From an uncultured Candidatus Saccharibacteria bacterium (GTDB taxonomy: Bacteria > Patescibacteriota > Minisyncoccia > Phycocordibacterales > UBA5272): a DNA stretch of 62,373 bases. The translations under genes and the position numbers were made by a program. The notes beneath the pieces are model-generated. The model was not told the origin of the DNA. It searched no databases and saw only the letters and a list, made by a program, of their open reading frames with translations. The stretch is taken from the NCBI GenBank assembly GCA_964621595.1, contig CAZUPO010000003.1, positions 7,150-69,522 of the forward strand, given 5' to 3'. Each line of letters opens with the position of its first letter. Positions within the stretch are counted from its first letter, which is position 1. Of the stretch, positions 1 to 3,000 are shown in pieces.

Positions 1-3000
1 TACTCTGCAACTGACTCATCAGGAAATGTAGGAACACCAGTAACTCGTACGGTAAACGTTCTTGCTGCACCGGATACAACAGCACCTGTCATTACCGTAA
101 ACGGTTCAACAACCGTAACCCTTCTTGTTGGAGGAACTTACACAGAACTTGGAGCAACAGTGGTAGACAACGTTGATGGAACAAGTACAGCAACCGTAAG
201 TGGTACCGTGAACACTGCAGCAACAGGAACATATATCATCACCTACTCTGCAACTGACTCATCAGGAAATGTAGGAACACCAGTAACTCGTACGGTAACA
301 ATTATCAGTGGACAAGTGCTTATCGTTAACTCAACACTCAATGGCACATACTATGCAACGTATGCTCCATCTGTGGCATCTTCTTCAGCCCTTGGAATAA
401 ACGGGACCTCAACCATTACCAACTCTACCCTTACCCTTCCTTGGACAGTAACAAATGTTAATCTAACAGGTGTAACGCTTGCTTCTTCCACACTCTCTAA
501 TACAACAATTACTAACTCAACAATTACAAATGCTGTACTTACTAACTGTACAATCACCAATTCCACAGTAAAGAACTACAAGGCAATAAACTGTACGCTC
601 AATAGTTCAATTGTTGACCCGCCATCTGGTCTCAACGACTTCAGTGGCTCAACTATTGCAACAAGTTCAATCTACTTCTCTGATGTAACCAATTCAACAG
701 TTAATACTTCATACATCGCGACTTCAACCGTTGATAATTCAACAATGAATAACTCGACGACAACAGACAGTAGTATCGCGACTTCAACCATTAACGGGAG
801 TACGGTAGCATCATCAACTGTTACTGATAGCACAGTGGCGACAAGTACTGTTACTAATAGTACCGTCGATAATTCATCAATAACAAACTCAACAGTCGCA
901 ACCTCAACAGTAACAGACAGCACAAGTACCAATAGTACTATTGCTAGTAGCACAATAGACACTTCTATTCTCACAACTAGTACTTCTACATCAAGCACTA
1001 TTGATGGAAGTACTGTCACTGGTAGTACGGTTACAAATGCTGATGTGGCAACAAGCACAGTAACATCTTCTACACTAACGGATAGCACAAGTACCCAAAG
1101 TACTATTACCAATAGCACTTTAACGGATAGTACGGCTGCTTCTTCGACAGTTGCAACCTCTACCCTCACCAACAGTGATGTAGCAACTTCAACTGTTCAA
1201 ACAAGTACTGTTGCAACAAGTACCCTCGACTCATCAACGGTGACTGGAAGTACCGTAAATACTTCTACCGTAGATACTTCTACTGTCACTTCTTCAACGG
1301 TAACAGATAGTACCAGTACACAAAGCACTATTACAAATAGTACAACGACAGACTCAACACTCACAAACAGTACTGTAGCAACAAGTACGGTAGACAACAG
1401 TACGCTTGCAACTTCAACAGTACAAACAAGTACGGTTGATAATTCTACTATTAGCAATGCAACAGCAAATAATTCAACTGTTGCCACAAGTACTGTTGAT
1501 ACATCGACGATAAATAATAGCACAATCGATACCTCTTCCGTCACCAATTCAACAGTAGCAACAAGTACTGTAGATAACAGCACTGTTGCGACTTCAACAG
1601 TACAAACAAGTACGGTTGATAATTCTACACTTGCAAACACAACGGCATCTGGTTCGACTGTTGCTACAAGTACGGTAAGCGGTGGATCAGTCAGTGATAG
1701 TACGGTAAACAACAGCACCTCTACCAACTCTACTCTTACAAATACGACTGCAAATAATTCTATGGTTTCTAGTAGTACGGTAGCGACTTCAACAGTTACA
1801 AACTCCACAGTAACCAACAGTACCAGTACGCAAAGCGCAATAAACAACAGTACTGTTGCTACTTCTACGGTATCGAATTCATCCCTTACGAATGGTACAA
1901 CCACAAATAGCACCCTTACTACAAGTACATTAACGAATAGCACAGTAGCCTCAAGCACTCTCACTAACAGCACTGTCGCCACCTCAACTCTTCAGAATAG
2001 TACTGTTGCAACCTCAACCATTACATCAAGTACACTAGACACTAGTGCGGTAGCGTCATCAACCATAGCATCTTCAACACTTACAAATGCCTCCTCAAGT
2101 AACTCGACAATTACCAATGGCTCTATTGCAACAAGTACTCTAGTTAATAGCACTGTGGCGTCATCAACAGTTGCATCATCCACGGTAACAAACACTTCGC
2201 TTACAAATGCAACAACAACCAATAGCACACTCAGTAACAGTACTTCCACTAATTCAACTATTACTAACGTGATCTCAAGTGGTTCAACAATTACAAGTAG
2301 TACCCTCATGAACGCAACAACCACAAACACAACTGTTGCGAACTCCACACTTCAAAATGCAGTTGTTACAAATGGTGTTATATCAAACGGAGTTATAACA
2401 AGTGGTACTATAACAACAAACGGTACGACGACAACAATCACCACTCCGACAGTTCTCACCAACCTAATTAACTACACCCCTGTTGCCGCGTTCGTCTCTG
2501 CTATCTCTAATCTAACCGCAACATTTACTGATAACAGTACTGACTCAAACAGTGGTGGTACTCTAGGAGACCTCTGGACATACATCTGGAACTTCGGTGA
2601 CGGCACATCAGCAACAACGACCAATGCCGCAACTCTTGGAAATAACCAGACACATAGTTACTCAACAGCAGGAACATATACAGTGCAGTTAACGCTTACC
2701 GACTCTGCTGGAAACAGTTCTACTGCGTCGGCATCTGTATCTCCAACTGCTCCGGTTGTAAGTGGCGGTGGAGGCGGAGGATTCACGTATGGTGGTGGAG
2801 GATTTGGTGGAACATACAGTACATCATTTGTACCCGTTCAGAAACCAGCAACAACTACACCAGTCGTAACCATAGAAAAAAATCCAACAAACCCTACAGA
2901 AACAATAGGAACCACAAAGACTTCTTCGAAAAATGCTTCGAAGATAGTAACTAAGAAGAAGGTTGTAAAAAAGAAAACTGCAACTTCTACAGTAGCAGTA

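Follow-up and report, generated by a model that had tools for sequence, protein, structure and literature searches.

Pentapeptide-repeat proteins are defined by a minimum of eight contiguous five-residue repeats with the consensus (A/C/S/V/T/L/I)(D/N/S/K/E/I/R)(L/F)(S/T/R/E/Q/K/V/D)(G/D/E/N/R/Q/K), in which leucine or phenylalanine forms the core (PMC8145042). The members with solved structures contain four to nine coils, and HglK has 36 repeats (PMC8145042). Some members of the family are secreted or bear signal peptides, as was described for Rfr32 (PMC8145042) and YjbI (PMC12864828). CfAFP is built from 15-residue coils of triangular cross-section, with serines in the turns, an isoleucine core and outward-facing TxT motifs (PMC13080227). 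The central domain of the ice-nucleation protein consists of 65 tandem 16-residue coils (PMC9418140). The array of five-residue units analysed here varies a known repeat type in an unusual way and is not a new kind of system.

The window, which is the whole stretch of 62,373 nucleotides that was analysed, belongs to an uncultured Candidatus Saccharibacteria bacterium (contig CAZUPO010000003.1). In translation, frame +1 reads without interruption from the first nucleotide of the window (nt 1) as far as the stop codon at nt 3094–3096. The open reading frame is truncated by the 5′ end of the window, and the true N-terminus of the protein is located outside it. Because the start of the frame lies beyond the window, the residues 100–760 to which an earlier sequence-only reading assigned the repeats were numbered from an internal GTG codon at nt 160. 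The forward strand encodes the end of one Ig-like DUF5011 / Bact_surface_Ig-like module and one complete copy (nt 1–303), and nt 1–55 recur exactly at nt 244–298. The model of this domain (PF16403) matches aa 31–101 over its full length with a score of 55.2 bits, above the gathering threshold of 27 bits, and an E-value of 7.4e-15. The capped array (nt 304–2490) is followed by a PKD domain (aa 831–915, nt 2491–2745), which was delimited by Foldseek and by Pfam matches of relatives. The predicted PKD domain superposes onto the crystal structures 6aem and 4l9d with TM-scores of 0.89–0.91 and rmsd of 1.7–1.8, and the signature WxFGDG is present as WNFGDG at aa 863–868. PKD (PF00801) and PKD_4 (PF18911) score above threshold at the aligned position in relatives, and the region of the window protein itself has a weak match to DUF4625. 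The placement of the array between Ig-like and PKD domains, which had been read from the sequence alone, is therefore backed by both profile and fold.

The PKD domain is connected through a low-complexity linker (aa 916–1009, nt 2746–3027), recognised from the translation and predicted with AlphaFold2 (AF2) pLDDT below 50, to a C-terminal amphipathic helix. The linker begins with Gly-rich GGGGGGFTYGGGGFGG, continues as a Thr/Pro-rich stretch and ends with Lys-rich KIVTKKKVVKKK. The helix, LGQLWNTFVSFVKKSFPALQTK, predicted by AF2 at aa 1010–1029, is a putative envelope anchor and, together with the stop codon, occupies nt 3028–3096. A terminator-like hairpin with a 15-bp stem (nt 3107–3141, forward strand) is positioned 11 nt 3′ of the stop codon; four such sites were observed in the region and 0.4 were expected. 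The gene neighbours are of the housekeeping type (EVE, Mur ligase, SecA, GlmS-like and LeuRS), and no glycosyltransferase, sortase or dedicated secretion gene was found among the neighbours scanned. The minus-strand open reading frames at nt 672–1172, 1197–1982 and 1992–2348 were dismissed as V/E/L-rich mirror images of the repeat.

The main array (aa 211–805, nt 631–2415, forward strand) comprises 119 x-S-T-[V/I/L]-x units in one register. The central position i is V, I, L, M or F in 101 of these units, Ser occupies position i-2 in 101 and Thr position i-1 in 97. Position i contains Val in 46%, Ile in 20% (V/I together about 66%), Leu in about 18% and Ser, Thr or Ala in 15% of the units. Position i-2 is Ser in 85% of cases, and position i+1 is more variable (T 40%, A 25%, D 11%, S 8%, N 8%, Q 4%), so that T-x-T is present in 40 units and T-x-A in 24. 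Serine and threonine make up 56% of the main array, which contains no K, R, E, P, H, W or C. Of the 144 units into which the wider segment aa 101–820 was split, 106 have V, I, L or M in a single shared register, 106 have a Ser at i-2 and 100 a Thr at i-1. At period 5.000, hydrophobicity has a Fourier power of 474,669, whereas the best of 1000 shuffled sequences reached 66,049, about seven-fold lower. Residue identity is 0.40–0.46 at all lags divisible by five and about 0.08–0.17 at other lags. Both the repeat pattern and the sharp period-5 peak foreseen by the sequence-only reading were thus recovered. That reading had also described about 130 units without a register break at nt 460–2440. The long single register stood, and the absence of breaks is not strictly true because a loop of 11 residues puts 12 units of the N-terminal cap one residue out of register. 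The uninterrupted run amounts to 119 units by windowed register call or to 124 by the run of centre residues, which extends to aa 819 in the C-terminal cap.

The array is flanked by conserved caps. The N-terminal solenoid cap (aa 102–210, nt 304–630), delimited by invariant alignment columns, AF2 prediction and the register call, contains β-hairpins and 12 canonical-looking pentapeptide units (aa 146–205, nt 436–615), which are shifted by +1 residue relative to the main array. These units are nearer to the consensus of the pentapeptide-repeat family than those of the main array, and aa 152–193 have sub-threshold matches to Pentapeptide_4 and PF00805. The register changes in the loop DPPSGLNDFSG (aa 206–216, nt 616–648), which overruns the end of the cap by 18 nt and opens with D206-P207, invariant in the family alignments A1 and A2. 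Also invariant in both alignments is the cysteine pair C183/C198 (nt 547–549 and 592–594), whose members are 15 residues apart at equivalent i-2 positions. Most of aa 102–210 was predicted by AF2 with pLDDT of 84–96. The C-terminal cap, TNGTTTTITTPTVLTNLINYTPVAA (aa 806–830, nt 2416–2490), was predicted with pLDDT of 83–90. Its motif begins upstream at NGVISNGVITSGTIT (aa 791–805), which constitutes the last units of the array, and residues S801, G802, G808, N824 and P827 are invariant in alignment A1.

AF2 prediction of aa 102–400 with 13 family rows (model 2) has a mean pLDDT of 85.4 and pTM of 0.76. The strands follow an EEE-- pattern, with one three-residue strand per five residues, throughout aa 159–400, and pLDDT is 81–95 at aa 212–321 and 83–91 at aa 342–391, with a dip at aa 322–341. 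In the full-length run (model 1), aa 345–623 were almost without alignment rows and were predicted with pLDDT below 50 and no secondary structure. The far end of the array in model 1 (aa 620–805) exhibits the same strand pattern at pLDDT of about 50–85. The solenoid anticipated by the sequence-only reading was thus obtained from AF2 with family rows and not from the central segment of the full-length run. Pentapeptide-repeat proteins are the best Foldseek matches by E-value for both models. Model 1 aligns to their structures with TM-scores of 0.42–0.57, of which 0.53–0.57 belong to the idealised 4yc5 and 4ycq, whereas the confident model 2 aligns to them with TM-scores of 0.18–0.26 and rmsd of 10–13 Å. 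The solved structures most similar to model 2 by TM-score are Ag43b (7kob, TMq 0.44) and TibA (4q1q, 0.35–0.37).

Designed and natural pentapeptide-repeat proteins are also the best sequence and profile matches in the PDB, with E-values from 1e-6 to 3e-4. The alignments contain no gaps, keep the register and pair S at i-2 with the A of the family, T at i-1 with D/N and V at i with L. The units had been interpreted as an S-T-V variant of the pentapeptide motif. Pentapeptide_4 (PF13599) matched 12 of 13 family members. A Pfam check had been proposed, and it returned the anticipated models, all of them below their gathering scores in the window protein and the seven relatives that were scanned whole (PF13599 24.7–26.8 bits versus 38; PF00805 16.7 versus 20.2). 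The 119–124 units, with 12 more in the N-terminal cap, far exceed the eight contiguous repeats of the family definition. Serine at i-2 fits the consensus, but threonine at i-1 in 97 of the 119 main-array units is outside the set of allowed residues. A four-unit superperiod is weak in the window array (p 0.0035) and was not reproduced in two orthologues, L091 and L092; a three-unit superperiod was found in none of the three arrays. The models support well that the array is a folded β-solenoid. Four sides per coil are likely; this part of the earlier claim of a quadrilateral β-helix falls short of proof, because the Pfam scores are sub-threshold, the TM-scores are mixed and the CfAFP family matches about as well.

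Syntenic orthologues from two other Paceibacteria genomes have single-register arrays of 88 and 134 units, and SecA is 78–79% identical between the syntenic genomes. The motifs of the N-cap and C-cap are separated by 563 residues in the window protein, 638 in L092, 408 in L091, 308 in P0017 and 178 in P0015. This distance equals 3 modulo 5 in all five long-array proteins, which indicates that no frame-breaking indel is tolerated. Array length varies at least five-fold among relatives. Orthologues do not share the same unit number modulo 4 or modulo 3, and recent duplications within the arrays span 10 or 13 units; both observations would be expected of a symmetric spacer of which only the length matters. 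Neither unit counts modulo 3 or 4 between the caps nor duplication lengths place a constraint on coil length. The order of Ig-like module, cap, array, cap, PKD domain, linker and C-terminal helix is conserved in the family. The C-terminal modules differ: dockerin is found in P0001 and P0017, PG_binding_1 in P0114, L091 and L092, and a transmembrane helix in P0063 and P0117. In the orthologues, a PG_binding_1-type domain occupies the position of the linker of the window protein. The motif of the C-terminal helix is retained at the C-termini of P0015, P0024, P0032, P0068, P0114, L007, L091 and L092, and N-terminal signal or transmembrane sequences are present in the relatives P0010, P0017, P0063 and L007. 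Two relatives are annotated by JGI as 'YjbI with pentapeptide repeats'.

A homologue search with the N-terminal cap only returned no sequences, although relatives clearly share this cap, and 300 residues of pure array, used as the query, found only three weak matches. The size of the family cannot be measured by array search because the composition corrections of HMMER suppress sequences of this type. An exhaustive search with the A1 profile was flooded by multi-PKD and Ig proteins and added six family members, and a GTDB scan with A1 was dominated by the PKD motif and provided one true relative (L007). Period-25 DUF285/BspA-type repeats of some matches from the first search (P0028 and others), which mimicked long period-5 arrays in the repeat detection, are unrelated.

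Based on the domain content and the predictions, we propose that the array probably forms a long, regular β-solenoid rod, most likely of the Rfr type, that serves as a cell-proximal surface stalk. Each unit would contribute one three-residue strand (T-V-x) and a two-residue turn, with the aliphatic residue i and Ser i-2 facing inward and Thr i-1 and the small or polar residue i+1 exposed to the solvent. The N-terminal cap may nucleate the rod, and the C-terminal cap may close it and lead into the PKD domain. A right-handed helix with four sides, as in pentapeptide-repeat (Rfr) proteins, is the most likely geometry; about 131 units would then give about 33 coils and a length of about 16 nm. The rod is most likely 15–20 nm long, rigid and threonine-coated. 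The protein would be exposed on the surface of a cell of the Paceibacteria (Patescibacteria/CPR) and tethered C-terminally by the Lys-rich segment and the amphipathic helix, in place of which relatives would use peptidoglycan-binding, dockerin or transmembrane ends. The C-terminal tethering and the alternative anchors of relatives suggest a rigid cell-proximal spacer, which would extend across the envelope and present the adhesive Ig-like (DUF5011) modules of the N-terminal part outside it, and whose length may be tuned by gain and loss of units. The periodicity, the conservation, the order of the domains and the solenoid prediction are results of the analysis; we infer the coil geometry, and, from domain content recognised in the sequence, also the surface location, the C-terminal anchoring and the stalk role.

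The length of the array would be misleading if the assembly had expanded or mis-joined a shorter repeat, which is extremely improbable. The independent short-read contigs found all end at window nt 1315, 1599, 2336, 2586, 2758 or 2770, and none of them covers nt 1–1314. Since two metagenome DNA scans with the N-cap region were empty, the first 1.3 kb of the gene are without independent assembly support. From nt 1315 onward, and over shorter stretches, six independent assemblies match the window at 99.6–100% identity, and this agreement spans the distal 1.1 kb of the array. The 15-nt units are mutually only 47% identical, all six serine codons are in use, and no exact repeat in the array exceeds 38 nt. 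The DNA is thus not repetitive enough for mis-assembly, and the arrays of 88 and 134 units at the syntenic position come from two genomes that other groups assembled. The divergence of the units also bears on the reading of the array as an unstructured Ser/Thr-rich linker, possibly O-glycosylated and mucin-like, with the period of five as a relic of tandem duplication. The high Ser and Thr content would agree with such a linker, as would the central 280 residues that lack secondary structure at pLDDT below 50 in the full-length AF2 run, and HMMER composition corrections nearly erase the database matches to pure array. However, the protein pattern was retained while the DNA units diverged, which argues that it is maintained by selection and not left over from recent duplication. 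In a stretch of 595 residues that contains no proline, 85% of the units keep an aliphatic residue at the exact five-residue spacing, the three orthologous arrays of 88–134 units contain no frame-breaking indels, and conserved caps are present on both flanks. The pLDDT rises to 85 once homologous rows span the array. We consider the disordered linker very unlikely, in accordance with the sequence-only expectation that a mucin-like region would not keep a strict period.

A folded rod in the same stalk role could instead be a narrow three-sided β-helix with 15 residues per coil, resembling the left-handed helix of CfAFP, in which about 131 units would form about 44 coils and extend about 21 nm. 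The family profile matches CfAFP isoform 501 (1m8n, E 3.4e-5, 26 bits) close behind the pentapeptide-repeat proteins and isoform 337 (1eww, 1l0s) at E-values of 0.007–0.009. Among matches listed at E-values up to 1, the Pfam CfAFP model (PF05264) hits 5 of 13 family members, the best at 6.8e-5. Nevertheless, all these Pfam scores are below the gathering threshold of 25.9 bits (18.3 bits in one listed relative, P0015), and the window protein alone has no CfAFP match. The small core, with Val or Ile at i and mostly Ser at i-2, resembles that of CfAFP (PMC13080227) and is unlike the core of pentapeptide-repeat proteins, which consists of Leu/Phe (PMC8145042). The spacing of the invariant cysteines in the N-terminal cap equals exactly one 15-residue coil, and the confident AF2 model superposes badly on pentapeptide-repeat structures. 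On the other hand, CfAFP structures are not among the best 50 Foldseek matches of either model, both of which are headed by pentapeptide-repeat proteins. The TM-scores of model 1 on idealised four-sided solenoids would, by our own judgement, be hard to reach with another coil length or handedness. The lack of a three-unit superperiod and of cysteines in the main array, compared to the disulfide-braced CfAFP, also speaks against three sides, and we regard this geometry as unlikely. Whatever its cross-section, the rod might be a working surface, the outward threonine ranks of which bind ice, crystalline polysaccharide or mineral, or organise water. The Thr rank at i-1, the T-x-T and T-x-A units, the absence of K, R, E, P, H, W and C, and the sub-threshold CfAFP matches are compatible with this function. 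TxT arrays with Ala as a common substitute occur in AFPs (PMC13080227), and the activity of the 65-coil TxT solenoid of the ice-nucleation protein requires continuity of the array (PMC9418140). The related genomes, judged by record titles, originate from cold freshwater, groundwater and glacier-fed stream metagenomes. However, the second rank at i+1 is irregular, and no face has a clean double rank of threonines because the window, L091 and L092 arrays lack a face-specific superperiod; the TxT and TxA units are spread over all faces. The variation of array length among relatives speaks against a working surface, and Thr/Ser-rich surfaces are equally typical of glycosylated or merely soluble stalks, which makes this function very improbable. 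Similarly, it is quite improbable that the array represents a hitherto undescribed class of narrow Val/Ser-cored solenoids, with three pentapeptides per 15-residue coil and Thr ranks on every face, in which the rod of about 20 nm itself organises water or ice or binds crystalline surfaces. If it did, cold-freshwater Patescibacteria would possess an antifreeze- or ice-nucleation-like adhesin unrelated to the known bacterial ones.

We therefore favour the spacer rod of the Rfr type. If its fold is confirmed, the array, with 119–134 units, no register slips and conservation in related genomes, would rank among the longest perfectly regular β-solenoids known. It would also show a pentapeptide-type helix employed in nature as an extracellular structural rod, in contrast to the DNA mimics and small regulatory proteins of this type. 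The use of S-T-V in place of A-D/N-L widens the sequence space of the motif and is missed by current Pfam models. The rod is a candidate means by which ultra-small episymbiotic CPR bacteria could hold adhesive domains at a set distance from the cell, and an uncharged, threonine-coated rod of tunable length may be of interest to protein designers. The array opens no new category of biology.

The array can be compared with four known systems. Large adhesins have rigid repetitive modules that hold binding domains out from the cell surface, as proposed for the stalk: the β-helical passengers of Ag43 and TibA and, in the ice-binding adhesin of Marinomonas (PMC4083281), an extender of Ig repeats. 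Unlike the array, they have no pentapeptide periodicity: the helices of Ag43 and TibA are formed by three-faced rungs of 19–20 residues, the adhesin extenders by Ig repeats, and they belong to diderms with type V or type I export. The ice-nucleation protein is, as predicted for the array, a very long regular solenoid of short repeats with outward threonines in a bacterial surface protein. Its 16-residue repeat, its TxT, SLT and Tyr-ladder motifs and its specialised C-terminal R-coils are not features of the array, and no sequence relation between the two was detected. CfAFP (PF05264; 1m8n, 1eww, 1l0s) shares Thr-rich T-x-T strands, Ser turns and a small Ile/Val core with the predicted solenoid. 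However, CfAFP has 90–121 residues, is braced by disulfides and carries TxT on one face only, whereas the array lacks cysteines, has equivalent faces and is about five times longer. The pentapeptide-repeat proteins (PF00805, PF13599, PF13576; MfpA, Qnr, Rfr32, HetL, Np275/276 and the designed 'beta1') have in common with the array the tandem five-residue units, the capping of the helix at both ends and, as predicted for the array, the inward aliphatic residue i and the small inward residue i-2. The array differs from them in its x-S-T-V-x unit, which deviates from the family consensus at two of five positions, with Thr at i-1 where the family has D/N and Val/Ile at i where it has Leu/Phe. As the sequence-only reading had anticipated, it is also much longer, since the window and orthologue arrays reach 119–134 uninterrupted units, compared to 16–36 in characterised members. 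Unlike the pentapeptide-repeat proteins, the array, which is likely four-sided, would form the stalk of a multi-domain extracellular protein, reaching from the Ig-like modules to the PKD domain.

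The array-bearing protein is read in frame +1, which contains no stop between nt 1 of the window and the stop codon at nt 3094–3096. Since the frame is open at nt 1, the gene is truncated by the 5′ end of the window, and the start codon that the ORF finder lists, a GTG at nt 160, is internal and not the gene start. The visible part of the protein comprises 1031 residues and is encoded on the plus strand. It contains Ig-like DUF5011 modules (residues 1–101; PF16403, E = 7e-15), a conserved N-cap (102–210), the main pentapeptide array (211–805, nt 631–2415), a second conserved cap, the C-cap (806–830), a PKD domain (831–915), a linker that passes from Gly-rich through Thr/Pro-rich to Lys-rich, and a C-terminal amphipathic helix (1010–1029). 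This order agrees with the sequence-only reading, which had placed the array between Ig-like modules and a PKD domain. A terminator-like hairpin with a 15-bp stem starts 11 nt past the stop codon. The longest exact direct repeat of the ORF, 55 nt (nt 1–55 and 244–298), is located in consecutive DUF5011 modules, and therefore the Ig-like modules were duplicated or homogenised later than the pentapeptide array.

The highest peak in the hydrophobicity spectrum of the array is at exactly 5.000 residues, as had been predicted, with a power of 474,669 compared to at most 66,049 among 1000 shuffled sequences. Lags that are multiples of five all give residue identities of 0.40–0.46 up to a lag of 60, and other lags approximately 0.08–0.17. 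When residues 101–820 are split into fives, Val, Ile, Leu, or Met occupies a single register (i) in 106 of the 144 units, with Ser at i−2 in 106 and Thr at i−1 in 100. Of the approximately 130 units initially proposed to lack a register break, 119 (windowed register call) or 124 (runs of aliphatic centres) lie in one register, but the 12 units of the N-cap (residues 146–205) are shifted by one residue relative to the main array, owing to the loop DPPSGLNDFSG. Of the 119 main-array units, 101 have V/I/L/M/F at the centre; Val accounts for 46% of the residues at i, Ile for 20%, and Ser, Thr, and Ala for 15%. Ser and Thr constitute 56% of the main array, Lys, Arg, Glu, Pro, His, Trp, and Cys are absent, and Asp (4%) is the sole charged residue type. 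N-x-S/T sequons number 52 in the main array (nt 631–2415), and 31 have the sequence N-S-T; no glycosyltransferase was found among the ten neighbouring genes scanned (nt 3621–17859).

The AlphaFold2 prediction of all 1031 residues from a 10-row alignment (model 1) had a mean pLDDT of 54. The caps, array ends, and PKD domain were moderately to highly confident, with one three-residue strand per five residues, and pLDDT was below 50 in the middle of the array, where alignment rows are nearly absent. The prediction of residues 102–400, for which 13 family rows were stacked starting at the N-cap (model 2), reached a mean pLDDT of 85.4 and a pTM of 0.76. The EEE-- pattern recurs in model 2 over residues 159 to 400, and confidence is lower in just two places, the DPPSG loop and the surroundings of the irregular units TSILT and TSTST (residues 321–330; pLDDT below 50 at 326–331). 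Thus, once homologous sequences are supplied, the array is predicted as a confident fold and not as low-confidence coil, in line with the folded array first proposed. In Foldseek searches with both models, pentapeptide-repeat structures ranked top by E-value (5dn0, 5dns, 6fls, HetL, AlbG, QnrB1, MfpA, 4yc5). The TM-scores of model 1 to the idealised designed solenoids 4yc5 and 4ycq were up to 0.53–0.57, and those of model 2 to pentapeptide-repeat proteins just 0.18–0.26; the two loops interrupting model 2 may explain this weak global superposition. Among solved structures, Ag43b had the highest TM-score to model 2 (0.44), followed by TibA. In a viral library, model 2 was best matched by two proteins of salmon gill poxvirus, both uncharacterised, A0A0H4Y153 (TMq 0.58, E = 3e-15) and A0A0H4XWC0 (TMq 0.52), both exceeding every solved pentapeptide-repeat protein; the ectromelia ‘caspase 9 inhibitor’ was next by E-value, with a TMq of only 0.30.

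The first homologue search returned mostly DUF5011 proteins, and about twelve matches contained the full cassette of N-cap, array, C-cap, and PKD domain (P0001, P0002, P0003, P0010, P0015, P0017, P0024, P0032, P0063, P0068, P0114, P0117). Where source names are given, they indicate CPR lineages (Minisyncoccia, Pacebacteria) and, for P0010, a Woesearchaeota archaeon; two are labelled ‘YjbI with pentapeptide repeats’ by JGI. In most relatives an unbroken run comprises 13–35 units and register breaks occur; P0017 has 68–75. SecA places the window organism among Paceibacteria-type Patescibacteria, the closest genome being 79% identical, and two of those genomes encode a single-register orthologue at the syntenic position, with 88 units in locus L091 (12338–15545, minus strand) and 134 in L092 (13821–17970, minus strand). 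Recent duplications of ten units (50 residues) are present in the L091 and L092 arrays and absent from that of the window. The distance between cap motifs equals 3 modulo 5 in all five long-array proteins, among which the unit number modulo 4 or modulo 3 is not conserved. Locus L007 (9227–14605), from a MAG labelled ‘Saccharibacteria’, encodes a 1792-residue protein with two complete cassettes per chain, an N-terminal signal or TM segment, a Gly-rich domain, and a C-terminal amphipathic tail matching that of the window protein. Cap residues are invariant in the family alignments, including a Cys pair spaced 15 residues apart. The N-cap pair, Cys183 (nt 547–549) and Cys198 (nt 592–594), occupies equivalent inward i−2 positions three units apart. 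It is invariant in 13 of 13 family sequences, the 595-residue main array having no Cys, and may form a disulfide of the cap.

The array is very probably a β-solenoid. Pfam Pentapeptide_4 matches the window protein with 24.7–26.8 bits against a cut-off of 38, and PF00805 with 16.7 bits against 20.2; Pentapeptide_4 matches 12 of 13 relatives, with all scores seen below the cut-off. Designed pentapeptide solenoids in the PDB were matched at E = 8e-5 by the single sequence and at 1e-6 by the profile, in gapless alignments in which S, T, and V pair with A, D/N, and L, respectively. The family profile also matches the spruce budworm antifreeze protein CfAFP (1m8n) at E = 3.4e-5, and Pfam CfAFP has matches in 5 of 13 relatives. 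CfAFP is a triangular, mainly left-handed solenoid of 15 residues per coil, with Ser in the turns, Ile in the core, and TxT outward (PMC13080227). The small core of the array, its Ser at i−2 and Thr at i−1, and the Cys spacing, which hints at a 15-residue coil, fit CfAFP at least as well as pentapeptide-repeat proteins, which have a Leu/Phe core (PMC8145042). Tests for superperiods of three or four units gave a single nominal signal, of four units in the window array (p = 0.0035 among 15 tests), which was not replicated in the L091 or L092 arrays. If the array is a solenoid, a four-sided, Rfr-like fold is roughly twice as likely as a three-sided one. A CfAFP-like coil geometry, which would leave the stalk role unchanged, is unlikely overall. 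The rod might itself be a binding or water-organising surface, since TxT or TxA occurs in 64 of 119 units and long solenoids of TxT repeats act as ice nucleators (PMC9418140); however, Thr is irregular in the second rank and no face stands out from the others, and we consider this role improbable. The chance that the array is a disordered glycosylated linker is similarly slight, because the aliphatic residue is strictly periodic, Pro is absent, the caps are conserved, and the orthologues lack indels.

The 15-nt units of the array have a mean pairwise identity of 47% and use all six Ser codons, the longest exact repeat is 38 nt, and TRF detected just four short patches. The strict protein pattern combined with far-drifted DNA indicates that selection acts on the protein. 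An assembly artefact, the concern raised by the sequence-only reading, is countered by this low repetition and by six independent metagenome contigs that match the window at 99.6–100% from nt 1315, 1599, 2336, 2586, 2758, and 2770 onward, but no independent assembly covering nt 1–1314 was found in the metagenome DNA scans. The array is neither an artefact, the least probable of the alternatives, nor a young repeat. All six contigs, which stem from the same population, carry the neighbouring EVE gene and end within the array; the gene is systematically broken up in public assemblies, and its relatives are probably under-counted. Three long stop-free minus-strand ORFs within the array (nt 672–1172, 1197–1982, and 1992–2348) encode low-complexity sequences rich in V, E, L, and T. 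They were rejected as genes, being mirror-image by-products of the repeat codon pattern; gene callers predicted similar opposite-strand ORFs on the related contigs L001 and L004.

The EVE-domain gene (nt 3177–3635, plus strand) is convergent with a 156-residue ORF without a Pfam family (nt 3621–4091, minus strand). Their 3′ ends overlap by 15 nt (3621–3635), and the pair is retained in all the independent contigs. One gene lying among housekeeping genes codes for a 186-residue SET-domain protein (nt 11401–11961, minus strand; PF00856, E = 3.8e-25); lysine methyltransferases with this domain are uncommon among bacteria.

Complete relatives begin with a signal or TM segment. The C-terminus is an amphipathic helix in the window protein, P0015, P0024, P0032, and L007, PG_binding_1 and a helix in P0114, L091, and L092, a dockerin in P0001, P0003, and P0017, and a TM helix in P0063 and P0117. 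Judging from domain architecture, these modules are probably interchangeable envelope anchors, in which case the solenoid would adjoin the anchor and the Ig-like arrays would be distal. A PG_binding_1-like domain separates the PKD domain from the C-terminal helix in L091 and L092; the window protein has just the Lys-rich stretch in its place. A conserved amphipathic motif (e.g. LWNTFVSFVKKSF, SLWGKIVRFVKHVF, SWLQKVKEFVKKIF) closes the otherwise differing tails of the window protein (nt 3028–3093), P0015, P0024, P0032, P0068, P0114, L007, L091, and L092, and may represent a signal, so far unrecognised, by which surface proteins of Patescibacteria are anchored in the envelope or sorted. The domain architecture suggests anchoring, surface exposure, and a spacer role. 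The rod would be rigid, nearly uncharged, and Thr-coated, approximately 16 nm long with four units per coil or 21 nm with three, and would act as a spacer bearing adhesive Ig-like modules across and past the cell envelope. A symmetric rod with length as its sole tuned property would fit the free variation in unit number, the lack of a whole-coil constraint, and the duplications of arbitrary unit count.

Some relatives already carry pentapeptide-repeat labels from annotation pipelines, and repetitive adhesin stalks are commonplace; therefore, the array protein does not represent a novel type of system. Its new features are the S-T-V variant of the motif, which falls under Pfam thresholds, the conserved caps around the array, and the putative role of the array as a stalk outside the cell in surface proteins of CPR bacteria. 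Also new is the extreme unbroken length, which upholds the expectation of an array far longer than well-known members: it is three to four times that of HglK, with 36 repeats, or of the largest solved pentapeptide-repeat proteins, with 9 coils (PMC8145042).
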